Below, piece after piece: positions 1-53,658 of a stretch of 64,000 bases of DNA. Position 1 is the first letter of the stretch, and every line of letters begins with the position of its first letter. Position numbers and translations under genes: made by a program. The notes under the pieces are model-generated. The model saw only the letters and a program-made list of their open reading frames with translations. It was not told the DNA's origin and did no database searches. Source of the stretch: a virus (taxonomy: Duplodnaviria > Caudoviricetes); IMG/VR virus record IMGVR_UViG_3300012007_000009, positions 32,001 through 96,000 of that record. The stretch is one strand, 5' to 3'.

Positions 1-816
1 TACGCCATCCCTGGAATACCGTATTTCCCGCGGCAGGTTTTCCGGCACGCACCACATCCTGGTCCTGTCGAACCGGCCGGCTATATAATCAAGATACTGG
101 TCTACCCTGTTGTCCATGATGATGACTTTTCCGGGTATGTCCCGGCTCGTGATATATTTCTTGGCCGTAGCCTGGTCGACCGGAGCAACTGTAACATTGA
201 ACATGTTCGCCAGTGCCATGCAAATCTCGTGGAACGAGTGGTCGGGCCTGTAGTAATACTCGTTGTAGCTCTCGTTGGCCAGTTCGCCTAGAGGGAACTC
301 ATAATCGAAGCCATACATGGTGAGGTGTGACAGCTGTGTCCCGCGCCAGCGCGTAATCTGCATCGCCCGGCAAAATGTCTCGATGAACGCGCTCGGCATT
401 ACGCTTTTCAGCGTAGTAACCAATTTCGACGGCGGGTTTGCCTTGTTGGTAATGACATCCTGTACCTCCGGCTTGGAAAACGCCTCAACGCATTCCTTCC
501 ACTCGGCCTCGTCAACGAACGCCTTTTTTGACAGGGGATACTGAATTACGCCGTTGGTGCTGTTCTTGATGGCTACCTTGTCGTACGGTATGTAGAAGAA
601 CCTCGGGTTGGCAAACTCCCTGTATGTTATGAGTCCGGGCAGCAGTATATCCAGCACATCCTTGTACCTGGACGACACGAGGTCGCCGTAATCGTCAAGG
701 GGTGCGCCGACCGGCGCCGTAGCGAGTAGTTCAACTTCGTTTCCCTGGGATGCCTGGCTGACCGCCTCCATCACCGCATCCATCGTGTACCCAACAATAT
801 ATACCTTGCCGCTCAT
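1..816 (-). CDS. Degenerate UDP-galactopyranose mutase (Glf)-like protein, partial (runs off window start; absent from ORF track)
   Basis: Hand-translated open frame from ATG 816 (MSGKVYIVGYTMDAV...YIPYDKV...TRWRG...YYYRP...KVIIMDNRVDQYLDYIAGRF). Collinear with Glf motifs (IVGAG..., KQWG, YQGIP, VIYTGPIDEYFDY.FG). ATGA overlap with the upstream gene's stop. Confidence 0.65.
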   Translation of the reverse strand, partial: MSGKVYIVGYTMDAVMEAVSQASQGNEVELLATAPVGAPLDDYGDLVSSRYKDVLDILLPGLITYREFANPRFFYIPYDKVAIKNSTNGVIQYPLSKKAFVDEAEWKECVEAFSKPEVQDVITNKANPPSKLVTTLKSVMPSAFIETFCRAMQITRWRGTQLSHLTMYGFDYEFPLGELANESYNEYYYRPDHSFHEICMALANMFNVTVAPVDQATAKKYITSRDIPGKVIIMDNRVDQYLDYIAGRFDRTRMWCVPENLPREIRYSRDGV

Positions 817-1244
817 ATTATAGATGCATCCTTCTGTATAAATGGTAAAATGTACTTTTCTAGCCAGTATTCATCCGGGAACTCAAATATCATGTCGATG
901 ACCTTCCCCTCGCCATCGGTGAATATGTTCACCGGTGCAAAGTCAACATGAATGTCATCAAGTATCGAGCTCGTCGACGCCTCGTCATCCACCACTATGC
1001 GTACTCCCCTCGTGGGGTTTTCGAGAAGACCGTGCTTCCCGAACCAGTTGTACATAGTCTCGATTCCGTGCTTGCATACAGGACATTCGTCCTTGGCGTT
1101 GTAGAAGCTATATACCCACATTATTACCCGTTGGCTGCTGGTAGTGTTCTTGTAGGCATCTAGGCCATATTCCAGCAGCCGGAGGCTCAGCGGTTTATAT
1201 ATTCCGTCTATATCGACCGGTTTTCCACAGCACGGCTTGGGCAT
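813..1244 (-). CDS. Thioredoxin-fold (CxxC) protein
   Basis: FY...ECPVCK motif, later 'APVNIFTDGEGKVI' cis-Pro/beta-hairpin pattern. ATG 1244 preferred over the track's 1271. Confidence 0.6.
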   Translation of the reverse strand: MPKPCCGKPVDIDGIYKPLSLRLLEYGLDAYKNTTSSQRVIMWVYSFYNAKDECPVCKHGIETMYNWFGKHGLLENPTRGVRIVVDDEASTSSILDDIHVDFAPVNIFTDGEGKVIDMIFEFPDEYWLEKYILPFIQKDASII

Positions 1245-1287
1245 GAGTAACTTTCCTGGCTTGTCCTGCAATGTAAACTAGGTCTTT

Positions 1288-1953
1288 TCAGACAGAAACG
1301 GAACCCTTGAACAGGCCGCGCGTGTTTTCCTCGTTGAATATCATCCAGTTTACCGAATGCCGCTTGCACCATGCCTCGGCAGCGGCCCACTTGGCATAGT
1401 TGGTCGCCACATCCAGACTCTTTCTCTGGTAGGTTGCCATTCTGCGCTGGTAGGAGGCTATCTTCTTCTGGTCCTGGCAACCCTGCGGAAGGGGTTTCGG
1501 CGGGACCGGGACAACGGAATATGCTACCGGCTTAATCTCAACAAGCCACTTCTCGACATGGCCGTCATCATACGCTATCTCCAAGTATATATCGGGCTTG
1601 TACAGTGACTGTTTCATATATACCGGGGAACTGTACGGTATGTCGAATGGCTCATATGCCCATTTCAGCACACGCTCGTTCCCGTCGCATAGCACACAAA
1701 ACCGCCGTTCCCAGTCCGACTTGTAATTCACCACTATATCCGGGACTTCCGCTTCCGTGCCATCCGGCATCGTGCGGCGAACCATGGTAACCTTGGTATC
1801 GGGTAGCCGCATGTACTTGTCCGGGTTAATCACGTGGTACGAACCCTTCCGGCAATCGCTGTAGTAACTGTGCTTCCGGCTCCTTATGAGCTTTGGCCGA
1901 GACTCGGTATCCGTCCCGGCCGAACTGACTGACTTCCTGCTCCGCCTACCCAT
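1288..1953 (-). CDS. T4 gp4-like head-completion nuclease (TnsA-like PD-(D/E)xK)
   Basis: NPDKY...YKSDWERRFC..CD....VLKWAYEP..IPY.SP....YKPDIY...LVEIKP...N.AKW.AA..WC. Confidence 0.85.
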   Translation of the reverse strand: MGRRSRKSVSSAGTDTESRPKLIRSRKHSYYSDCRKGSYHVINPDKYMRLPDTKVTMVRRTMPDGTEAEVPDIVVNYKSDWERRFCVLCDGNERVLKWAYEPFDIPYSSPVYMKQSLYKPDIYLEIAYDDGHVEKWLVEIKPVAYSVVPVPPKPLPQGCQDQKKIASYQRRMATYQRKSLDVATNYAKWAAAEAWCKRHSVNWMIFNEENTRGLFKGSVSV

Positions 1954-1956
1954 AAG

Positions 1957-3849
1957 CTATCCCGCGGTTGCGTACATCCTGGAGTAATAGTCAGCCAAGC
2001 TTTCCCCGTTTCTCTGGGATGTCCAGATGATGTTCTGTATGCGCAATACGCGCGCCTTCTCGTAATCCGATTCAACGGAGTAGTTGGCCAGGCGTTCTTC
2101 CTCGTCCATTTTTACCGGGGCCCTCCCGGTAGGCTTCGGGAAATTGGTTTCGAAACCGCCGTTGAAGTTTGCATCCAGCCCACTGGACTTCCCGCGTACA
2201 TCACGCAAAGCCTTGACGGTATTGTTGCTAATCTTAAAGAGTCCGGCAAACCGCAGGAACTGGTACCACTTTTCGGTAAAGTAGGAATCCTCCTCGCACC
2301 CATCCGCTATTGACAACCCGATTGCCCTGAGCGACTCATCCTCCTGTGATGTCAGCGGCTGCTTTCCCACATTTATGTCGTTCTCCCTATCCGGGGAATC
2401 GGTAAACTCGGCAGCATCGCGTACCGGGTCAGTTTCGGTCAGGCTCTTGCCTTCCTGCCCATTACGGAATAGGTCGACATTCCACGCGATACCTCCGGTA
2501 CCGTCAAGGCCGTACGTAACCTTTGCCACGGAGACTTTATTCTTGGCGCGGCTGTTACATGTGCGCAGCCTGTCATACAGGTCATCCCACATGCCCGCCA
2601 GCTCATCGAGAGTATACCCGTCCCCGTTCTCGCTGTATCCCGCATCGTATGCGCTGTCGGCACGCATACAGCACAGATAGATATCGGCCTCGAACGCACG
2701 GTTCCAGAATTCCCCGGTCAGCTGCAGTTCCTCGTTGAATTTCTTTACCTTGTTCTTGATTCGCTCGGACAATGCCGGACACGGATACTCAAGGCAGTTT
2801 ACCCACATTTTCATGCTTTCCATCATGTCCAGTATGCTCATGGTGTATACCGTCTTGCCATCGTCGACTTCCTTTGTATATAAAAGGAGACAGTCGAGAT
2901 GCGACGTCCTTAGCGGGGAAATCAGGAAAGTCACATCCCATTTCTTACGCAAGAACATGGCATACTGCTTGATAAGCCAGCGGAACGGATATATGAACAG
3001 GGTAAACAGGCTATCTATCGCGAGGCTTATTGCGTCAAACATCAGCACCAGGTATTGCTTGATGTAATCATCCATTATGGCACTCAGCCCGGTGGCCAGA
3101 TTCAAACCGTCGATAAACCAGAATTTATCCCGAATGCAGAATATCACCCTATCCGGCTGGTCGGATATGTTATTCCCGTCGGCATCCTCGTCACAACCGG
3201 TTACATATGCGACAAACCGGCATACGCACGGGCACTCCCTCAGGAATCCCTCTAGTGAATCCCAGTCGAAATTAAGAGAAATCTTCAGTGCGTCGGTAAG
3301 GAACTTTTCAATCATGTCATATACATCCAGGATGCACTGCAGTACGGCATCGGTCAGCGCCTTCAGGGCGGATTGCATGCGTTCCCTGGCAGTATCTATC
3401 TTGTCGAATAACGCAAAGGCCGCCTTCGCTATCATTTCCAGCCAGGAATTCACCGTGCCGAATATCGAGGCCACCACGTCGCATATCTTCTTGGTAACAG
3501 AATTGTTCTGTACGAAGTCGCCGATGGCAACCCCGGTGGAAATAGAATTTATCGCGCTTATTACCGAGTCAATTCCTTCACCAACGGTCTTCAGGCCCGG
3601 GCATACCTTATACATCCATTCAAGGAGGTGTTCGGAACAGTCGTATTGGTACAGCGACGTTGCCGCGGCGTCAACCTTTCCCGCCGCACGAATGACAGAG
3701 TCAAGGAAATCACCATCGTCTTCCTCGGTAGTTGCGGTTAGGGAATTTGTCGCGACGTCAGTATCGCGCGTGACCTGCTTTCCGTTACTCCCCTCGCCTC
3801 CGGCATAGTTCGCACCATTTATTACTTCTTCGCAAGTCTTGACAGCCAT
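1957..3849 (-). CDS. Hypothetical Cys-rich helical protein, probably virion/baseplate-associated
   Basis: 630-aa ORF coupled to the gp5-like gene within the baseplate operon; no motif recognised. Confidence 0.5.
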   Translation of the reverse strand: MAVKTCEEVINGANYAGGEGSNGKQVTRDTDVATNSLTATTEEDDGDFLDSVIRAAGKVDAAATSLYQYDCSEHLLEWMYKVCPGLKTVGEGIDSVISAINSISTGVAIGDFVQNNSVTKKICDVVASIFGTVNSWLEMIAKAAFALFDKIDTARERMQSALKALTDAVLQCILDVYDMIEKFLTDALKISLNFDWDSLEGFLRECPCVCRFVAYVTGCDEDADGNNISDQPDRVIFCIRDKFWFIDGLNLATGLSAIMDDYIKQYLVLMFDAISLAIDSLFTLFIYPFRWLIKQYAMFLRKKWDVTFLISPLRTSHLDCLLLYTKEVDDGKTVYTMSILDMMESMKMWVNCLEYPCPALSERIKNKVKKFNEELQLTGEFWNRAFEADIYLCCMRADSAYDAGYSENGDGYTLDELAGMWDDLYDRLRTCNSRAKNKVSVAKVTYGLDGTGGIAWNVDLFRNGQEGKSLTETDPVRDAAEFTDSPDRENDINVGKQPLTSQEDESLRAIGLSIADGCEEDSYFTEKWYQFLRFAGLFKISNNTVKALRDVRGKSSGLDANFNGGFETNFPKPTGRAPVKMDEEERLANYSVESDYEKARVLRIQNIIWTSQRNGESLADYYSRMYATAG

Positions 3850-5096
3850 CAGTAAGTACCCTCCAGTGACTTCAAGTTGGTGTATGCCAGGAACCTGATG
3901 TCGACGGGGTTCGACGGCATGTATGCTATGACTTCAATTTCATCCAGCTTCCCGGCCTGCTTCACGTGGTTGACTACATCGAGGAATTTTTCCATCTGGT
4001 AATCATTTATGTTACCGTCGCCGTAGAATACGATACTTACCGCATCCATGCTTGGCTTGCCACGCATATCGGACCCAAGGGTCGCATCGAACGTGATGTC
4101 GGCGCACTGGACGAAACCTCGGTTGGTTGCCTTGGACTTGTCTTCCAGTGTCGCCAGTACATCGGGGTCGCCATCGGCTACACCGATGAGATAATGTGCG
4201 CAGTTCTTGGCACTGTCATCGGTGTAGTTTGACAATATTTCGGCCAACGGGGTTGTCAACCCGGTCGCCGACAGTATAATGCGCTTGTTTACCTTTGCAC
4301 TGCGCGACTTGGCTGCCGGTGATTCCATGAACGGGATTTCGTAAGTGCTGGACCTACCGACTATCTCCTTACGCTGCTGGCCATCAATTTCGGCATCCTT
4401 GGTTCCTTCTACCGCCGTTCCCGTAGAGCCACCGTTACCGCGCAACGTGTCGATGGTGGACCTGGAAATATGCGGCACCCGGAGATATTCCGAGCCGGAA
4501 CGCAGGGCGTTCTCGGCACTTCCCACCGGCTTGCACGTAAATATGTCTATCGTGGCTTCAGTCAGTACCGACACCGGAGCTATACCGGCCTCGTCGGACG
4601 CATTGGCCGAGTTCAGTACAACTTCCCCGGCGGCATTCCAGGAAATCTCTGAATTGTTGCCGGGGTTCCTGGTAGTCGATATGTGTGAGCGCCGATTGTG
4701 CGTATACAGGTACCCGGTTTCGCCCATGTTAAACACGGCAACATCCGGATATTCCCCGACATATTCTTCGGGCAAAAAGTTCTTGGTTGCCGATAGTCCA
4801 AAATACATACCCTGGTTGATATCGCCATCAATGAACTTGACCAGCAGCCAATGTCCCTTCTGCGGGACCTGCTGCATGCCGGTAGTCAATTCCGGGGCAA
4901 ACCAGGGCTGCATTTTATCCGGCCATTTATCGGTTACTCCACTGACCCGAGCCTGTACATGGCCGGCCCTATTCGGGTCAACCGACGTTCCCACAACTTG
5001 CGCATAGTAGCGGGGGGAAGTCAGCGGCCCCGGCTTCTTGTACACAATAGAATAGGCAGTTTCCCATGGAAACTTGAAATCGGGAGACGATATCAT
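3849..5096 (-). CDS. gp5/VgrG-like baseplate spike (N-terminal OB fold) with a C-terminal Amidase_2/PGRP-like domain
   Basis: YYAQVV...DPNRAGHVQARV.G...PW..P...VPQKGHWLLVKFIDGDINQGMYFG is the gp5 OB-fold signature. C-terminus has RIILSATG...CAHYLIG...VQ...SIVFYG...YQM. Confidence 0.75.
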   Translation of the reverse strand: MISSPDFKFPWETAYSIVYKKPGPLTSPRYYAQVVGTSVDPNRAGHVQARVSGVTDKWPDKMQPWFAPELTTGMQQVPQKGHWLLVKFIDGDINQGMYFGLSATKNFLPEEYVGEYPDVAVFNMGETGYLYTHNRRSHISTTRNPGNNSEISWNAAGEVVLNSANASDEAGIAPVSVLTEATIDIFTCKPVGSAENALRSGSEYLRVPHISRSTIDTLRGNGGSTGTAVEGTKDAEIDGQQRKEIVGRSSTYEIPFMESPAAKSRSAKVNKRIILSATGLTTPLAEILSNYTDDSAKNCAHYLIGVADGDPDVLATLEDKSKATNRGFVQCADITFDATLGSDMRGKPSMDAVSIVFYGDGNINDYQMEKFLDVVNHVKQAGKLDEIEVIAYMPSNPVDIRFLAYTNLKSLEGTY

Positions 5097-6442
5097 TTTT
5101 TCGTCTCCTTGTTCAATGACGCAAATACGGTATTTCCCAAGGCAAGCACGGACTTGTAGTCCGGGCTGAGCATGCCGGCATATCCGTTATTGGTAATCAT
5201 AATGATTTCCGTTAACAAATCGGCAGTATTTTCGGTGCGTTCCTTGCCGAGTATACCAGTAGTTACGGTAGCATCCTTTACGATACGCTTGCCAACTATA
5301 ATATACCTTGCGCTGTAATTTTCATCCGGCAAAATATCGCCAGTTTTCAGCTTGGGCGAGCTCGCGTAAAAATATACACACGAACCAACCGCTGGCCCCG
5401 GATGGTTATACAAGTACACGCGAACCATTTTTGAATATTCCGCGAGCAAGTAATTTCGGATAAACGGGGCTATCGAATATGTCTTGTGGGTATTGGATGG
5501 GAATGGCTTAATTACATACTGCCTTCCATATGCCTTCTTCTCCATGTATTCGGTAGACGCTCCCATCGTGCCAAGTATCGAGCTCCAGCATTCTTCGCTG
5601 CATATGCCGGTATCCTTGCTGCTCCCGGATGCCGTACTGTCTATAATCATGTTAGGCGACCGGGCTTCCCGGGTTGTGCCGGCCATATCGGTTGGCATAT
5701 ATCCCATGTAGTACCAGACTATAGTATCGCTGTCCTTCAGCTTGTGACAGGCTGCAGTAGTCGGCATATTCGAGTCGTTGCTGTACATCATGAAGTTTTT
5801 GGGCTTGGTGCCCTTGGATACGTTAAATGTACCAAGAACGTAAGTTTGGGCCAGTTCATCGTAAGTCCAATACAGTATGTCCCCGGGGATGGATGAATGC
5901 TCGATAACATTATCCATATGTGTACTAATATCGCCATCAACGAACCGCCAGGTCATATTGTCGCTTATGGAGTTTGGCTTTTTGGCTGGCGACACTTTGT
6001 CCAGCAGAGGGATACTCTTCTCGCTGAATAGCTTGTTTGCCGCCTCAACACTCGTGCCATCCATCGCAAATGCTTCCATTACGCTCTGCATTTCCGGAGT
6101 GCCGAATACAAACGAAATGTCAATCGACACCATGTCCTGGGAAACTTGGCTTCTTACGGCCGAATAGATGTATATTGGCAATTCTATGGCGCCGTTATCC
6201 GGTTTCAACCCATATAGCAGCAACCGGCCATAGGTGCCACTTTTGGGGTCACCTGCAGCATCCGGAGTACTAACCAAGTTTGCGGAGCCATACGGGAGAT
6301 GGTTGATGGGCATTTCTAGCTTGAACATATGAATTGCCGCATCGTTAAATACGCCATAATCACGCTTATCCGCGTCGGCACTTGAGCCCTTCTCTATCAT
6401 GATAGCTAGAGAATACCGTTCACCTACTCTAGTATTAGCCAT
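5093..6442 (-). CDS. Baseplate hub protein (gp27/GpD-like), putative
   Basis: Position between gp53-like and gp5-like genes; 449 aa; C-terminal 'P...VGSCV...DENYSARYIIV' resembles the hub 'SG.Y.I' strand. Confidence 0.55.
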   Translation of the reverse strand: MANTRVGERYSLAIMIEKGSSADADKRDYGVFNDAAIHMFKLEMPINHLPYGSANLVSTPDAAGDPKSGTYGRLLLYGLKPDNGAIELPIYIYSAVRSQVSQDMVSIDISFVFGTPEMQSVMEAFAMDGTSVEAANKLFSEKSIPLLDKVSPAKKPNSISDNMTWRFVDGDISTHMDNVIEHSSIPGDILYWTYDELAQTYVLGTFNVSKGTKPKNFMMYSNDSNMPTTAACHKLKDSDTIVWYYMGYMPTDMAGTTREARSPNMIIDSTASGSSKDTGICSEECWSSILGTMGASTEYMEKKAYGRQYVIKPFPSNTHKTYSIAPFIRNYLLAEYSKMVRVYLYNHPGPAVGSCVYFYASSPKLKTGDILPDENYSARYIIVGKRIVKDATVTTGILGKERTENTADLLTEIIMITNNGYAGMLSPDYKSVLALGNTVFASLNKETKK

Positions 6443-47939: not shown

Positions 47940-48251
47940 TTAACCGGCCGCATTTCCCGCGGTCAGTACGCTGTAAAAGTGTGACTTCTTGTAGGTGCTA
48001 TGGTTGAAGACGCGCCCGGCCTTCTTCAGCTCCATGTACAGGCGGTACGCCGGGTTGTCGTGCAGCAGCCTGTCGGTTGGCACGCCATAAGGCGCCGGCT
48101 GCACCGGGATGTCGAAATCCCACGTGCTGACGAAACCGAATTCTATGTCGTATCCGACATATACGCCAGCTTCGTGCAGCTCCCTTGAGCTCAAACCGGT
48201 TATACGCGATATACCGGGAGCATCTCTGTATAATAAGATTGCTTCTTCCAT
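47940..48251 (-). CDS. Hypothetical protein
   Basis: 103-aa ORF with an upstream GTTATATTG promoter-like motif. Confidence 0.45.
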   Translation of the reverse strand: MEEAILLYRDAPGISRITGLSSRELHEAGVYVGYDIEFGFVSTWDFDIPVQPAPYGVPTDRLLHDNPAYRLYMELKKAGRVFNHSTYKKSHFYSVLTAGNAAG

Positions 48252-48387
48252 AGGTCCATAAAGCAATATAACTTTTGGAAAAATAAAATGCAAGTGCCTT
48301 ATGCAAATTTTTTAAATGGCTATGTCCACCCAAAGTGTTGCTAGTTTGAAAAATCGTTGAAATTAGTCCAATTTCGCCATTTTCCAC

Positions 48388-48457
48388 CCCTATGTAAACC
48401 AAACTTTACATAGGGTTTGCTATTGACATAATATGACACTCCTGTTTTGCTATATTT
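48388..48457 (+). promoter_or_regulatory. Transposase promoter region: 11-bp inverted repeat plus TGCTATATTT
   Basis: CCCTATGTAAA-n6-TTTACATAGGG (48388-48415); motif at 48448-57. Confidence 0.55.
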
Positions 48458-48477
48458 CCATTATAGAAGGAGGTCTT

Positions 48478-49533
48478 ATGTCCGAAGTAAATCTTGTTTA
48501 CCAGATGTACAACACCTTGTCCAAATCGGACAAGATGCGCTTCATGCAGATGCTCGGCATGCCTCCGCAGATGACCGAAATCATCGACTCATCCACGATG
48601 GAAGAGTTCCTTGACAAGTACCGCTTCCACAATGGCGTGTGCTGCCCGCATTGTGGTCTAGTGGATGTCAAGAAGAACGGCAAGACAAAGACAGGACACC
48701 AGCGGTTTCAATGCAAGGGTTGCGGTAAGTCATTCACCTATGCGACCCGCACCATCTTCCATGGAGCCAAGCTGCCGCTTGACACCTATCTCCGCTATGT
48801 GCATTGCATGATGCACGGTATGACGGTCAGGGCAACGGCTTATGAATGCCATATTTCCAAGAATGCATCCTTCTTCCTCCGTCACAAGATTCTGGATGCT
48901 CTGCAAGAAATGCAGTCCAAGGTGAAACTGGACGGCATCGTGGAAGCGGACGAGACCTTCTTCCGTATTTCATTCAAGGGCAACCATAGTCGGAGCCAGT
49001 TCTTCAGTATGCCCCGTGAGCCTCACATGAGAGGCGAACGCTCCAAAAAGCGTGGTATTTCATTGGAAAAGGTATGTGTGCCGTGTGCGGTCAACCGTGA
49101 CGGCAAGTCCATTGCACAGATTGCGAACTTGGGTCGTGCATCGGTGCGGAGCATTTCCAGCGTGTTCGGTGGTCGTATCTCACCGGATGCGGTTCTCTGC
49201 ACCGACAAGCACAATGCGTATGTAGGGTTTGCAGAGCGGGAAGGCATCAACCTATTGCAGTTAAAATCTACCCAGCGTGTCAGTGGCACGCTGGGTATCC
49301 AGCACATCAACGGCTATCATAGTCAGCTAAAGACATTCATGGAACGCTTCCACGGAGTTGCTACCAAGTATCTCAACAACTACTTGGTATGGCACAATCT
49401 TCGCAACTACGCCGAAGGTGATTTCAACTTCAAGGAATCCGTATGGGAACGCCATAATGCTGAAGCCATCTACGATGACTCAAAGTGGACTTATATGTTC
49501 CGTCCGCCTATTCCTTTGCCGTTGGCGGCATAA
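48478..49533 (+). CDS. IS1595-family (ISXO2-like) DDE transposase
   Basis: Zn ribbon CPHCG...CKGC, HTH, VEADETFF, LCTDK..AY, HINGYHSQLK, YLNNYL.W; SD AGGAGG. Confidence 0.92.
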   Translation: MSEVNLVYQMYNTLSKSDKMRFMQMLGMPPQMTEIIDSSTMEEFLDKYRFHNGVCCPHCGLVDVKKNGKTKTGHQRFQCKGCGKSFTYATRTIFHGAKLPLDTYLRYVHCMMHGMTVRATAYECHISKNASFFLRHKILDALQEMQSKVKLDGIVEADETFFRISFKGNHSRSQFFSMPREPHMRGERSKKRGISLEKVCVPCAVNRDGKSIAQIANLGRASVRSISSVFGGRISPDAVLCTDKHNAYVGFAEREGINLLQLKSTQRVSGTLGIQHINGYHSQLKTFMERFHGVATKYLNNYLVWHNLRNYAEGDFNFKESVWERHNAEAIYDDSKWTYMFRPPIPLPLAA

Positions 49534-49575
49534 TTCTGCCGCACTGCTATTTCATCGTCTAGTCCTTATACTAAA

Positions 49576-49893
49576 TCACCATACTGATTCGCAGTAATAT
49601 GTGAATGGATTAAGACTGATTTCTCCACGTGTGTCTTTAATTACCGTGGTATCAGACTTAATTACCTTGGTACCAGACTTATGTACCATTGCCATTTTCT
49701 GGCAATGCCATTCCACCCTATGACCTATCATGTGGTAATCGTACCAACAATCACCAACCTGTCCCTTTCCACGAAAGAAATGGTATAATGTGTCATTGGT
49801 ATTCGGATTCCAAATAGTAAACTTTTTGCAAGTTCCGTCGCCAGCGAGTGAGACTGCTACTCCGATTAGGATAGTCAACAAGACAGCTTTCAT
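49576..49893 (-). CDS. Transposon passenger: small secreted protein
   Basis: N-terminal signal peptide MKAVLLTILIGVAVSLA; four Cys. Confidence 0.55.
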   Translation of the reverse strand: MKAVLLTILIGVAVSLAGDGTCKKFTIWNPNTNDTLYHFFRGKGQVGDCWYDYHMIGHRVEWHCQKMAMVHKSGTKVIKSDTTVIKDTRGEISLNPFTYYCESVW

Positions 49894-50145
49894 TTAGTGT
49901 TCTTCTTTCACTATTCCTTCTTGATGGCGGCCCGTCGTGCTGGCCCGTCGGGCTCCCTCTTCGTCACCATACACTTCGGCCAGCTTCGCCCTGGCATTAA
50001 GGTAAGCCAGGTTGCCCATTTTCTCCATCTTCTCACCTTCCAGAGACGTACTGGTCCAATCGGTTACCGTGCATTCGTTCAGGTCCTTGTCGCCGATGTG
50101 TTCCTTTAACTTAGTGAGCTCGTCAATTATCTTGCTGAGTTTCAT
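49894..50145 (-). CDS. Transposon passenger: hypothetical protein
   Basis: SD AAGGAG; 'MKLSKIIDELTKLKEHIGD' is a common small phage-protein opening. Confidence 0.55.
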   Translation of the reverse strand: MKLSKIIDELTKLKEHIGDKDLNECTVTDWTSTSLEGEKMEKMGNLAYLNARAKLAEVYGDEEGARRASTTGRHQEGIVKEEH

Positions 50146-50205
50146 TAGGTTTCTCCTTTGTTATGGTATACGGTTTCTTATATTGCGTACATAATCTTGC
50201 ACATG

Positions 50206-50634
50206 TTATCCTATAATTTCAGTCCACGCAATAACCTTGTTGTAACAATCACCCTCTTTTGGACGGTAGCCGTAAAAAATGCCGTTATCACCACACAAAA
50301 GCACATTATAGACAGGTGTACCAACTGGTTCGTTATTATCGCTATGGTACATTTGTACTTTACAGAGGAAAACATCCTTTTGATATTCGGCAACCTTGGG
50401 AGCATCTCCACAATCCTTGTATGGATGCCAAATCATCTTGTTGGAGTTATCTTCAAGCATACCTAAATGCTCTCTATACATCTGAAGCTGACAGAGTTTT
50501 AGGTTTCGGTTAATGCAGTCATCGGACAACACATATTCCAAATCCTTGATTTCGTTTTTAAGCCACTCAATCTTTCGCTCGGTGGTTTTTAGTCTGTTAG
50601 CATTCATATCTAGTTGATTGGTTTCCGTAGTCAT
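50206..50634 (-). CDS. Transposon passenger: hypothetical protein (DUF551-like C-terminus)
   Basis: WHP.....P...VIAW ending; SD GAGG. Confidence 0.55.
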   Translation of the reverse strand: MTTETNQLDMNANRLKTTERKIEWLKNEIKDLEYVLSDDCINRNLKLCQLQMYREHLGMLEDNSNKMIWHPYKDCGDAPKVAEYQKDVFLCKVQMYHSDNNEPVGTPVYNVLLCGDNGIFYGYRPKEGDCYNKVIAWTEIIG

Positions 50635-50674
50635 AGCTTTACCTCACTTGTTAAACTACCTGTTAAATTATATT

Positions 50675-51034
50675 TTATACCTTGCTTGCGGCAATATCGC
50701 CAGCAAATTCTGTAGGGAATAGTCGATACATAATGTATTCCTTCAGCACTGGTTGATTGTCAATTAGCTCATATACCGAATTGATATGATGCAGTGCATC
50801 AGTTACATTCTTGGCTATGCCGTCCAGATGGTTTGCGCCCAACCGCTTAGGCAGAATACCGTACACATTGATATAAAGGTCACCGCCATCTTTCACCGTT
50901 ATCAAGTGTTCCTGACCGGAATATGTAATCCGCACCTCCTTTGAGTCTGGTGCAACGGAAATGCATTCGGCCTTGCCAAGGTCAAAAGATTCACGCTTGA
51001 TTCCATATACCCTCACGAGCTTTGCAGTAATCAT
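50675..51034 (-). CDS. Transposon passenger: hypothetical protein
   Basis: SD GGAGG; operon packing. Confidence 0.55.
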   Translation of the reverse strand: MITAKLVRVYGIKRESFDLGKAECISVAPDSKEVRITYSGQEHLITVKDGGDLYINVYGILPKRLGANHLDGIAKNVTDALHHINSVYELIDNQPVLKEYIMYRLFPTEFAGDIAASKV

Positions 51035-51036
51035 TG

Positions 51037-51729
51037 TTACCTCCATAACGCTTCAATCCGTTCCTTTACATCCGTCCACTTATCAGATATAGCAAGATAG
51101 TCCTTATTTTTCTCCGTAGCCAAATCATTATGATGCTGCAATCTTGCCATAGCACCATAGTAATTTTCAGCATACGTGGCTATTTGACGGGTTTTCCGCA
51201 GGCTATCTTGTTTCATATTCCGTAATTGTTCATCTTGACACCTTATTACTTGCTTGTATGCCTCGGTATCGTGAAAAAGGGAGTCACGTTCCGAAATGAG
51301 CCGGGCATTTTCTTCCTTCAATGCGGTAATTTCGGTATCTTTATTTGTCTTCAGTATATCCATAGCCACCAACTCGCCCTGCTTCTCTGTCAACGATGCT
51401 TCGAGTTGTTCAACTTTGTGTTCCAGATAGGCTATATACTTCTCTTGCGGTACTGGATGCTCCGTATCATACAGGTCAACAAATTGGTTGGCACCAAGCC
51501 ACGGGCTCTCGCTCGTTCCATCCAGTACGATTGCATCTACGGTCTCTTCGTGAGGATGCAGAATATATCCTTCACCATAGGGCTCAATCGTACACACGTT
51601 TACCCCAAGATGTAGGTCGTCAACGGACAACTTGTTATCCGTCAATGTGAAGGTGTACCTATCGTTATACCCTTCTTCGAACGCTAGCCGTAAGCTAGAT
51701 TCAATAGCGTCTAATGACCATTCCATCAC
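51037..51729 (-). CDS. Transposon passenger: coiled-coil protein
   Basis: Heptad-rich C-terminal half; coupled to the upstream ORF. Confidence 0.6.
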   Translation of the reverse strand: MMEWSLDAIESSLRLAFEEGYNDRYTFTLTDNKLSVDDLHLGVNVCTIEPYGEGYILHPHEETVDAIVLDGTSESPWLGANQFVDLYDTEHPVPQEKYIAYLEHKVEQLEASLTEKQGELVAMDILKTNKDTEITALKEENARLISERDSLFHDTEAYKQVIRCQDEQLRNMKQDSLRKTRQIATYAENYYGAMARLQHHNDLATEKNKDYLAISDKWTDVKERIEALWR

Positions 51730-51935
51730 GTTGACTCCACTTTTATCGTTCCGTTGAACCCCATCTCACGGATGTCTTTTTCAAGTTGATTTGCAGACAT
51801 CCAGAAGTTTCTTGTATAGCCACGACCGAGGACATAGGCGTAGAAACGGTCACAGTCTTTTGCAATATGAATTTCGTCATCATACTTTTGTGCGTTTTCA
51901 ATCACTTCAATCAGTAGAATCGGTTGCGTCATCAT
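51726..51935 (-). CDS. Transposon passenger: small hypothetical protein
   Basis: SD GAGG; overlaps the next start. Confidence 0.5.
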   Translation of the reverse strand: MMTQPILLIEVIENAQKYDDEIHIAKDCDRFYAYVLGRGYTRNFWMSANQLEKDIREMGFNGTIKVEST

Positions 51936-51988
51936 CTTTTAATCCTCTTTTATATCCGTTCGTTTATCCTCAAACTCGGTCCCGGTTC

Positions 51989-52594
51989 CTACGCAATGTT
52001 TACTGTGAGCGATGCCATAGTCTCATTAGAACGAGGGTCAACATAGGCAACAACTGCCGTCTTCGTTCCGTTGAGGTTAGCATCACGCACAACCTTGATG
52101 ACTCCGTTTATAATACCGCACCTATCCTCCGCATCGCTCGATGCGAACCAGTCCTGACAAGGAAGCGTCTTCAACTCTTCCTCGGTGTCTGTACCGATGT
52201 AGACAACGTTGCCACAATACTTACACTGCTTTTGAAGCTCGGAGGAAGCGTAGCCCAACTTATACACCACATACAAGGGATGGTTCTCCTTACACACGCA
52301 AGGCACAATTTTGTCAAACTTCGCATCAAAATTATCGTCGGTAGGGTTAGCTGTCGTTTTCGGTGAATATCCCCACATTCCGTTCTCTTCGCACTCTTCG
52401 TATCCCAACTTCTTCAGGATATACTCGCAACCGGCGGTGAACACATCGGGTACTTCTACCGCCAGATGCTCCATTCCGTCACTGCCTTCCACCAGACACT
52501 CTTCCTCACGGAGAATACGCTGGATTTCCTGGCGGCTCGGAATGAAATTGTCATCAAGTTCAGTTGGAAATTGCGGATTGAATGAGTCACTCAT
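51989..52594 (-). CDS. Transposon passenger: hypothetical acidic Cys-containing protein
   Basis: SD AAGGAG before ATG 52594; downstream of the TGCTATATTTG promoter at 52647-56. Confidence 0.6.
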   Translation of the reverse strand: MSDSFNPQFPTELDDNFIPSRQEIQRILREEECLVEGSDGMEHLAVEVPDVFTAGCEYILKKLGYEECEENGMWGYSPKTTANPTDDNFDAKFDKIVPCVCKENHPLYVVYKLGYASSELQKQCKYCGNVVYIGTDTEEELKTLPCQDWFASSDAEDRCGIINGVIKVVRDANLNGTKTAVVAYVDPRSNETMASLTVNIA

Positions 52595-52743
52595 AGTTAT
52601 CTCCTTATCTAATTTACTCACCCAATAAACTACATTTTTTCAATACAAATATAGCAATTTATGGGGTCTGTGGGTTAAATGCTGTTTTTAGCCAATTTTG
52701 ACCATTTTTATCGGCCAGCAACACTTTGGGTGGACATAGCCTT

Positions 52744-53658
52744 TTAAATCTGCTTGCTCGAAAGCAGGTCAACCATGTTCAGCATGCTCGACCAGGTTCC
52801 ACCGACACTCATAACAGGGATTAGGAACACGTGATGTCCCTGGAACTCCACCTTGGTCCACCTGAACTTCAGGTTGTTCGGAAGTTCAAACGGGCGGTTG
52901 GCTATCAGGACGAAGGGCCTGAATGTCCTGTCCTTCTCGCGGTCTATCACGACAGCGTCATCGAACTCAACAATCGCCTGGTTTGTCTTCGGGTCGACGG
53001 ACTTCACGACGACGGACGGCCTCTTCCCGAGCTCTATGTTGACCAGGGCCGCCCCGTTCAGCCGGCTGAACATGTTCCTCCGGTCATCCCGCATGACCTG
53101 GAGGTACTCGTGCAGGTCGAGGTACCCGACCATCTGGTGCTTCACCGGACGGTTCGCCTGGTGCCATATCCCCCACATATACCTGGCGATGACGGGTTGG
53201 AACAATGCACCCTTGTCTGCGCCGAGGTTCGCCATCAAATTGTATATCCCAGGAATATCCTTCATCAGCTCTGTACATGTGGTCAACTTTCTGTCGGCCT
53301 TGTCGGAGAAAGTGTTCCTCCCGGGAATTCCCTTGAACTTCCCGGTGAATACGTACCTATCGAAATCGAACCTGGGGGAATTGAACGAGTTGAGCGCGTT
53401 GCACACGTCGGTGCCTTCCCTGCTCTTGATGGGAACCCGGTCGGGAAGCGCGTACACCTCCACGGTCTCCCCCACCATCTTCCACGCATCCAGGGTAACG
53501 CCGCAGTCGGTAGTGTACTTCGCCTTGCTTATGGTGGCGTGCGGCTCGGGTTTCCCGTGAATGTCGCACAGGCCCATGGACTCGCCGAGCACTATGTGGC
53601 CGGCGTCGATGTCCGGCATGTACACCACCTGGGTCTTCCCCATGTGCTGGAGTATCAT
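52744..53658 (-). CDS. Hypothetical protein
   Basis: 304 aa from MILQH; ATGA overlap with the gp25-like gene; its stop codon lies inside the transposon TSD. Confidence 0.6.
   Translation of the reverse strand: MILQHMGKTQVVYMPDIDAGHIVLGESMGLCDIHGKPEPHATISKAKYTTDCGVTLDAWKMVGETVEVYALPDRVPIKSREGTDVCNALNSFNSPRFDFDRYVFTGKFKGIPGRNTFSDKADRKLTTCTELMKDIPGIYNLMANLGADKGALFQPVIARYMWGIWHQANRPVKHQMVGYLDLHEYLQVMRDDRRNMFSRLNGAALVNIELGKRPSVVVKSVDPKTNQAIVEFDDAVVIDREKDRTFRPFVLIANRPFELPNNLKFRWTKVEFQGHHVFLIPVMSVGGTWSSMLNMVDLLSSKQI

Follow-up and report, generated by a model that had tools for sequence, protein, structure and literature searches.

How did a low-GC block of DNA carrying a transposase gene and seven small phage-like genes come to lie between two intact genes of a large rumen phage, and does its presence there mean that accessory genes move between phages by transposition? 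The block lies in IMG/VR virus record IMGVR_UViG_3300012007_000009 (Duplodnaviria; Caudoviricetes), a 160.8-kb record rated 44% complete, of which bases 32001-96000 were analysed (a 64-kb stretch hereafter termed the window, in whose numbering positions are given). The element at this locus is very probably a passenger-carrying insertion sequence (transporter IS, tIS) of the IS1595 family, from an IS lineage that is native to the Fibrobacteraceae, and was inserted as one 4424-bp unit.

Structure and insertion site of the element

The ends of the element are defined by a 25-bp terminal inverted repeat (TIR; GGCTATGTCCACCCAAAGTGTTGCT) with two exact copies in the window, at 48318-48342 on the plus strand and 52717-52741 on the minus strand (0 mismatches; expectation in 100 shuffled sequences, 0). 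From TIR to TIR the element measures 4424 bp, and the inverted similarity of its ends extends, at a weaker level, to ~72 nt at 72% identity. Adjoining both TIRs on their outer side is an 8-bp direct repeat, TTTTAAAT (48310-48317 and 52742-52749), the target-site duplication (TSD). GC content is 0.38-0.52 inside the element (~44%) and 0.54-0.60 in the flanks (~56%). Between the ends lie one plus-strand transposase open reading frame (ORF) and seven minus-strand ORFs (49576-52594) that face it and abut or overlap as in an operon. An internal TIR-like sequence, including a right end directly after the transposase gene, was absent from the element at up to 6 of 25 mismatches, and no second copy of the element was found in the 160.8-kb record. 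The ends and the sequences that belong to them are as follows.

48310-48317: left copy of the TSD, TTTTAAAT, identical to 52742-52749
48318-48342, plus strand: transposase-proximal TIR, 25 bp, a 25-mer that also ends elements in Fibrobacter, Hallerella and phage contigs
48343-48477, plus strand: transposase-side subterminal region, with a hairpin, a promoter-like motif and a Shine-Dalgarno (SD) sequence
48445-48459, plus strand: promoter-like TTTTGCTATATTTCC on the transposase side (motif match)
48466-48473, plus strand: SD sequence GAAGGAGG before the transposase gene
48478-49533, plus strand: intact IS1595-family DDE transposase, 351 aa (MSEVN...), with an N-terminal zinc ribbon (PF12762, PF12760, NF033547)
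52595-52716, minus strand: cargo-side expression module, with an SD sequence, a promoter-like motif and subterminal sequence
52599-52606, minus strand: SD sequence AAGGAGAT before the cargo lead gene, c210
52646-52656 (plus-strand numbering), minus strand: promoter-like TGCTATATTTG on the cargo side
52717-52741, minus strand: cargo-side TIR, 25 bp, 0 mismatches
52742-52749: right copy of the TSD, TTTTAAAT, holding the TAA stop codon of the 303-aa phage gene

The genes on either side are intact phage genes, and the cargo array is co-oriented with them.

47940-48251, minus strand: small phage gene (MEEAILLYRD...), followed by genes for a UvsX-like recombinase and a DnaB-like helicase
52744-53655, minus strand: phage gene of 303 aa
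53655-56060: gp25-type baseplate wedge gene, upstream of the 303-aa gene

Since the right copy of TTTTAAAT carries the TAA stop (52744-52746, minus strand) of the 303-aa gene, no ORF is disrupted. Two relatives of the window phage (L022 and L023), with 69% identity in the 303-aa protein and 77% in the UvsX-like protein, have the gene order gp25 baseplate wedge, 303-aa gene, 77-nt spacer, 92-aa gene, UvsX-like and DnaB-like, and in-silico excision of 48318-52749 makes the window colinear with both at the 77-nt spacer. The locus in these relatives is therefore an empty site, a bare spacer that holds no cargo genes outside TIRs. An earlier note on this DNA had described perfect TIRs with an intact TSD, a convergent small-ORF cargo enclosed by them, and a clean, recent insertion that broke no gene, and on each of these points the present analysis agrees. 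Neither finding that the note had named as fatal to its reading, cargo at this locus outside TIRs in relatives or a right TIR directly after the transposase gene, was observed. Its start codons were revised: c210 begins at the ATG at 52594 behind AAGGAGAT, not at an upstream GTG, and the transposase begins at the ATG at 48478, as in all of its relatives.

Between the transposase-proximal TIR and the promoter-like TTTTGCTATATTTCC is a hairpin with an 11-bp stem (48388-48415), which could keep read-through transcripts from entering the transposase gene. Its 5' edge coincides with the deletion junction of a transposase-less cassette in another phage (L011, described below).

Transposase and family assignment

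The transposase ORF is full-length and matches the NCBIfam model for IS1595-family transposases (NF033547) with 180.8 bits (cutoff 75) over model positions 3-212 of 215. Further matches were recovered to the ISXO2-like DDE domain (PF12762; 41.6 bits, cutoff 27) and to zinc-ribbon models (PF12760, 28.4 bits, cutoff 25.4; NF050000, 48.4 bits, cutoff 28), and candidate catalytic residues are visible by eye at EADET, CTDKHN and HINGYHSQLK. Together with the TIRs and the 8-bp TSD, these matches uphold the IS1595 assignment made previously. The passenger-carrying architecture stands as well, as the seven further ORFs have no transposition-related family match and share one TSD with the transposase gene in an interval lacking internal TIRs. 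As judged from its sequence, the element has all of the testable defining features of the IS1595 family and of a tIS. Siguier, Gagnevin and Chandler reportedly named the passenger-carrying 'plus' subgroups of the family ISPna2+ and ISNwi1+ in 2009.

The closest copies of the transposase are in the Fibrobacteraceae, with 85-86% identity (82-84% when the longer ORF was used as the query), and the gene has a patchy distribution there: of 81 genomes sampled, 10 have it, each with one or two copies. This transposase lineage and the occurrence of the exact element ends in Fibrobacteraceae point to that family as the host of the phage. Amongst GenBank phages, the closest transposase is 47.6% identical and annotated as IS1595-type in two rumen Streptococcus gallolyticus phages (MN270259.1 and MN270258.1); IS1595 elements may be commoner in rumen phages than has been thought.

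A palindrome with 14-bp arms lies inside the transposase ORF (49269-49297) and is followed by a T-rich run on the minus strand, an arrangement that looks terminator-like for transcripts arriving from the cargo or phage side. The palindrome does not occur in five other transposase genes of the family and is thus specific to the window copy.

The element family in Fibrobacteraceae and rumen phages

Related loci in viral contigs or genomes (labelled with L and a number) were collected with the initial 20 nt of the TIR as an exact query, which returned ten loci in viral contigs and seven in GTDB genomes, all seven of the latter in Fibrobacter, Hallerella or unclassified Fibrobacteraceae metagenome-assembled genomes (MAGs). 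Elements bounded by the same TIRs thus occur in several large and unrelated phages of the rumen as well as in genomes of Fibrobacteraceae. Units with both ends measure 456, 807, 1752, 2458, 3503, 3750, 3919 and 6010 bp, and every one of them has its own AT-rich 8-bp TSD except the 1752-bp copy (L015). Besides the window, a TSD was recognised at eight loci (L008, L011, L013, L014, L016, L018, L019 and L021, with L008 and L014 representing the same 456-bp element), and a further one is suggested by L017 and L020, which lie on one contig and have flanks that match. Shorter TIR pairs of 142 and 285 bp have slightly mismatched ends. The transposase gene adjoins one end in most copies and is 70-86% identical to that of the window in all of them, while the remaining content varies from copy to copy and includes secreted-looking proteins, a methyltransferase, an 817-aa ORF and small ORFs. 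The search for the TIR elsewhere that had been proposed for this element thus produced TIR-bounded siblings with differing contents.

By predicted content the family takes three forms, namely transposase-bearing elements with passengers (tIS), transposase-less mobile insertion cassettes (MICs) and miniature inverted-repeat transposable elements (MITEs). The transposase-less derivatives on phage contigs comprise cassettes and MITEs of 142-456 bp, one of them nested in another element; L006, L008 and L010 are miniature forms. The clearest cassette, L011 (807 bp, on a 222-kb phage contig), has both window-type ends, a fragment of the cargo gene c83 and its own TSD, and is thus best read as a deletion derivative that moved in trans. 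The TSDs on the transposase-less L011 and L008 likewise imply mobilisation in trans.

Several of the miniature forms hold a small ORF of 62 or 115 aa, in two cases directly after an SD sequence near the end. The nested MITE (L008:3210-3797, L014:2272-2859) is a 456-bp inner element with a 115-aa ORF and the TSD ATTGCTAT, which is part of the promoter-like motif AAATTGCTATATTTG of the outer element, so that the family may target its own ends. The 285-bp MITEs (L010:3392-3676, L024:5803-6088) share a conserved 62-aa helical ORF (MTKEKIKE...), located ~74 nt from the end behind GAGGAG.

A conserved expression module at the cargo-side end

The end far from the transposase consists of ~135 nt with a fixed order: TIR, subterminal sequence, TGCTATATTTG, AAGGAGAT and an ATG. 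Module and TIR together are 89% identical in L011 and 93% in L015, the module is ~93% identical in L030 and L031 (inside longer alignments), and it is also present in L005. Different genes come after the module in different copies; in L015, from a F. succinogenes MAG, it precedes a 120-aa passenger ORF. In two copies with another subterminal sequence (L018 and L019), the motif recurs with unchanged spacing to the end. The first codons, MSD or MSE, are common to lead genes that are otherwise different, which suggests that cargo is swapped by recombination at the module.

A promoter had previously been placed at 52647-56. The motif TGCTATATTTG is present there, at 52646-52656, and we infer from its sequence and setting that it is a promoter. 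A near-identical motif, TTTTGCTATATTT, stands before the transposase gene in most copies examined, ~130 nt from the transposase-side end in L015, L016 and L021 and slightly diverged in L013. In our reading, TATATTTG would correspond to the -7 element (TAnnTTTG) known from promoters of the Bacteroidota type, and TGCTATATT to an extended -10.

Cargo genes and their origin

The seven cargo genes, all on the minus strand and listed from the lead gene inward, are small.

51989-52594, minus strand: c210, the lead gene, 201 aa (MSDSF...), modular, with a conserved Cys-containing C-terminal domain at ~residues 80-201
51726-51935, minus strand: c69, 69 aa, 97-99% identical in L024 and L030
51037-51726, minus strand: c230, 229 aa, with a widespread ~148-aa N-domain and a coiled-coil tail; its start overlaps the c69 stop
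50675-51046, minus strand: c123, with a likely start at the ATG at 51034 that gives 119 aa, as in relatives
50206-50634, minus strand: c142, 142 aa, with a predicted helical-hairpin N-domain and small beta C-domain
49894-50145, minus strand: c83, 83 aa, whose N- and C-terminal modules recur joined to other domains in relatives
49576-49893, minus strand: c105, 105 aa, with a signal-peptide-like N-terminus

Comparison of copies in different genomes gave ratios of nonsynonymous to synonymous substitution (dN/dS) of 0.12-0.32 overall (c210, 0.12-0.22; c230, 0.14-0.23; c123, 0.25; c142, 0.32 versus L034), and the cargo ORFs are therefore real genes under purifying selection. Metagenomic relatives, counted as cluster representatives, number 15 for c210, 76 for c230 and 84 for c142, several of them on contigs of 200-470 kb. 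The c210 cluster alone has 130 member sequences at ≥90% identity, one of which occurs on 60 contigs, and 100%-identical cargo proteins have been recorded from several sources, with c142 on three contigs. Domains are shuffled amongst these relatives, with the c230 N-domain standing alone in ~149-aa proteins and the c83 N-module joined to c142-type sequence.

The relatives of c230, c142 and c83 lie in small-gene arrays that have no TIR within 7 kb, on phage contigs with 35% GC and lengths up to 411 kb; the nearest Atlas clusters for c230 are all viral, and c210 was not found in 151 Fibrobacteraceae genomes. These viral relatives and the failure to find c210 in those host genomes mark the cargo as DNA of the phage pool that is joined to a host-type IS, and the phage-like character proposed for it earlier is confirmed. 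An NCBI MAG labelled "Fibrobacter sp." encodes homologues of c142 and c210 (MBR2305685.1 and MBR2305687.1) at a distance of two genes, on a contig no longer than 466 kb; as c210 was not found in the 151 genomes, this contig could represent a jumbo phage that was binned together with its host.

Function proved harder to assign. No cargo protein matched the known anti-phage defence systems in PADLOC at E≤1, and the anti-defence or exclusion role raised in the earlier note found no support there; the 14 matches of c210 in a phmmer search of 1.84 billion representatives included none with an annotation, and a search of the ESM Atlas returned no usable annotation for the cargo. The AlphaFold2 model of c210 was unusable (predicted local distance difference test, pLDDT, 40), and that of c142 (pLDDT 61) has a helical hairpin and a small beta domain. 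For the c142 model, Foldseek gave no match to viral models at E≤0.001, but 9 of its 33 top matches are DUF551 phage proteins (E 0.01-0.3; template modelling score ~0.3). The protein has no match to the DUF551 Pfam model (PF04448) at E≤10, and the DUF551-like assignment of the earlier note is reduced to a weak hint from this sub-threshold excess in a predicted fold. Its description of c105 as secreted goes no further than the reading of the N-terminus, and that of c230 as a coiled-coil protein was not supported in the form given, although weak matches to coiled-coil families were obtained. A match of c230 to UvrC_RNaseH (E=0.002, below cutoff) was dismissed, as it falls in the coiled-coil region. 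No relatives of c105 were found in viral contigs, nor any family match; the gene contains a 21-nt tandem duplication (49637-49678, 90% identical) that encodes a repeated 7-aa unit, TKVIKSD/TTVIKDT.

The seven proteins are presumably accessory infection factors made from a host-type promoter. Of the more specific classes, host takeover, counter-defence or superinfection exclusion is the likeliest, a tentative suggestion that is somewhat less likely to be right than wrong.

The cargo block in other phages

A 52-kb contig (L030) and a 178-kb viral contig (L024) represent one locus of another phage, in which the cargo-side TIR and the module are followed by c210-c69-c230 (93-95% DNA identity), other genes and a short transposase-side end. 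In L031, a perfect TIR and the same three lead genes lie beside a DHH-family gene with a different flank, and in L035 a perfect TIR is followed by a shortened module; both of these contigs end after the cargo-side TIR and cargo. The c210-c69-c230 block is thus found, 93-95% identical, in at least three genomic contexts, and its presence behind TIR and module in an unrelated phage and on L031 lends direct support to the proposal that modules are shuttled between phages.

A shared locus, suggested by the likeness of the window flank (GCAGATTTAAAA) to that of L030 (GCAGATTATAGAA), was rejected: the reading frames differ, the downstream genes run in opposite directions, and no homologue of the 303-aa protein of the window, nor of its UvsX-like protein, was detected in the L030/L024 phage record. 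A gene of TnpB type (OrfB_IS605/Cas12f-like; L030:1340-2629) lies 1.5 kb from the cargo cassette.

A further arrangement bears on how cargo may be acquired. In L033 and L034, the cargo-type array adjoins genes for RtcB, a C5 methylase and an HNH endonuclease and ends in a 41-nt transposase remnant and a perfect TIR. Element ends therefore occur within what look to be native phage arrays, which suggests that genes may be taken in when an element loses one end and the next one downstream takes its place. The L033 array (121-5340) is from another rumen phage, and its surroundings, with an RtcB tRNA ligase, a C5 cytosine methylase and an HNH homing endonuclease, are a neighbourhood typical of counter-defence genes.

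Interpretation and alternatives

We propose that the whole 4424-bp unit transposed into the genome of a large rumen phage of T4-like type, where it entered an AT-rich intergenic spacer, with 8 bp of target being duplicated. The inward-facing module at the far end would act as an expression slot, the gene next to it being transcribed convergently with the transposase, and in phage-borne copies this slot would have been filled by a mosaic array of small phage accessory genes. Such arrays could originate through recombination at the slot and through the loss or replacement of ends beside native phage genes, while transposase-less derivatives would be mobilised in trans. The broadest version of this proposal, in which the IS lineage is a dedicated phage gene shuttle whose slot picks up, expresses and moves accessory genes (counter-defence, takeover or exclusion) among unrelated large Fibrobacter phages, with the cargo paying for the insertion, is speculative and on balance doubtful.

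Several observations weigh against this proposal, in whole or in part. The nearest empty site is in a relative with 69% flanking-protein identity, not in a near-identical genome, and a search of the other phages with TIRs for a closer one brought up nothing related to the window phage. The 1752-bp copy, as noted, is without a TSD. In L030/L024 the TIRs of the cassette are degenerate (four mismatches each) and no TSD is present, so that mobility there is historical at best. L033/L034 have no cargo-side TIR, and immediately beyond their transposase-side TIR is a homologue of c142; the array is hence not enclosed by an element in every case, and which way capture ran is a presumption. Lastly, no function for the cargo emerged from Pfam (E≤10), PHROGs, PADLOC, NCBIfam, PDB profiles or structure prediction.

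This shortage of functional annotation would also suit cargo genes that are hitch-hikers (morons), whether neutral or selfish, which benefit neither phage nor transposon and persist solely owing to the youth of the element, and an insertion that is recent by its perfect TIRs and TSD, in a large phage of the kind that tolerates extra DNA, is compatible with the idea. It is nevertheless unlikely, given the sustained purifying selection across genomes indicated by the dN/dS values, the size of the c210 cluster and the spread of its most frequent member, and the conservation of the expression module, which implies selection for expression.

A second alternative is a mosaic built in two steps, with a transposase-only IS and a separate cassette or solo end coming to lie side by side or recombining, such that the 4.4 kb never moved as a whole. 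The single identical 8-bp duplication around the entire 4424 bp makes this improbable, as do the lack of any internal TIR, the foreign GC content of the entire interval and the bare 77-nt spacer in relatives, despite a family rich in MITEs, cassettes, nested insertions and end deletions and despite an element end that lies between cargo-type genes in L034.

It is more improbable still that the cargo serves the transposon rather than the phage, in the form of regulators, target immunity or a partner protein. Some IS families do bear accessory regulatory ORFs, and the promoter motif is common to cargo and element, but the passengers are wholly different between copies whose transposases are 70-86% identical, cargo relatives lie in phage arrays free of TIRs, and the cargo was not found in the 151 host genomes, with the transposase present in about one in eight of the 81 sampled. 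An assembly chimera, in which unrelated low-GC metagenomic DNA was joined into a phage contig, might be raised by the abrupt GC change in a metagenome-derived viral contig but is hardly credible when perfect synteny with the phage locus is resumed beyond the block, each junction coincides exactly with a TIR end, an 8-mer is duplicated there as no assembler would do, and identical cargo proteins come from several sources.

Insertion as a single tIS unit remains the preferred reading, and its significance lies in an intact cargo-bearing transposon, with a swarm of cassettes and miniatures, spread across several unrelated large rumen phages even though IS are rare in phages. It provides concrete evidence that DDE transposition is able to move accessory genes between phages, and were the shuttle proposal true, transposition would be a real route of phage mosaicism beside recombination. 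The analysis also highlights widespread orphan genes of rumen phages that are under selection, and the portable promoter and ribosome-binding-site module could be of use for expression in Fibrobacter.

Comparison with known systems

The IS1595 family is the very group from which the tIS was defined (Siguier, Gagnevin and Chandler 2009, as cited in PMC3129680). The window element resembles the described tIS in its IS1595-type DDE transposase with a zinc ribbon, its short TIRs starting with GG, its 8-bp duplication, its passengers unrelated to transposition inside the TIRs, and a size within the 1.5-8 kb range. It differs in residing in a large phage of virulent type rather than in a chromosome or plasmid, and its passengers are a seven-gene mosaic array of small phage ORFs. 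A further, putative difference is the far-end module of promoter, SD sequence and ATG, which is common to different cargoes in the window family. The replicon is uncommon for any IS, as a 2012 survey found 92% of phages to be IS-free and knew of no transposon on an active phage (PMC3429520).

MICs (IS231-MIC231 of Bacillus cereus) and MITEs are standard derivatives of IS (De Palmenaer et al. 2004, as cited in PMC3129680). The cassettes L011 and L030/L024 are of this kind, being TIR-bounded, transposase-less and ORF-carrying, although they are found here in phage genomes, and the window element is set apart from them by an intact transposase that would make it autonomous. One-ended capture of the ISEcp1 or ISCR type is similar in that variable neighbouring DNA is mobilised by one transposase, but both ends of the window element are perfect 25-bp TIRs with an 8-bp duplication and no surrogate end, and that mechanism is not needed. 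In a composite transposon, too, cargo lies between IS ends, whereas the window element has one transposase gene, no second IS copy and no internal ends. The tIS is therefore an already known type of element, and what is less ordinary in this case is the replicon that carries it, the cargo and the conserved expression module.

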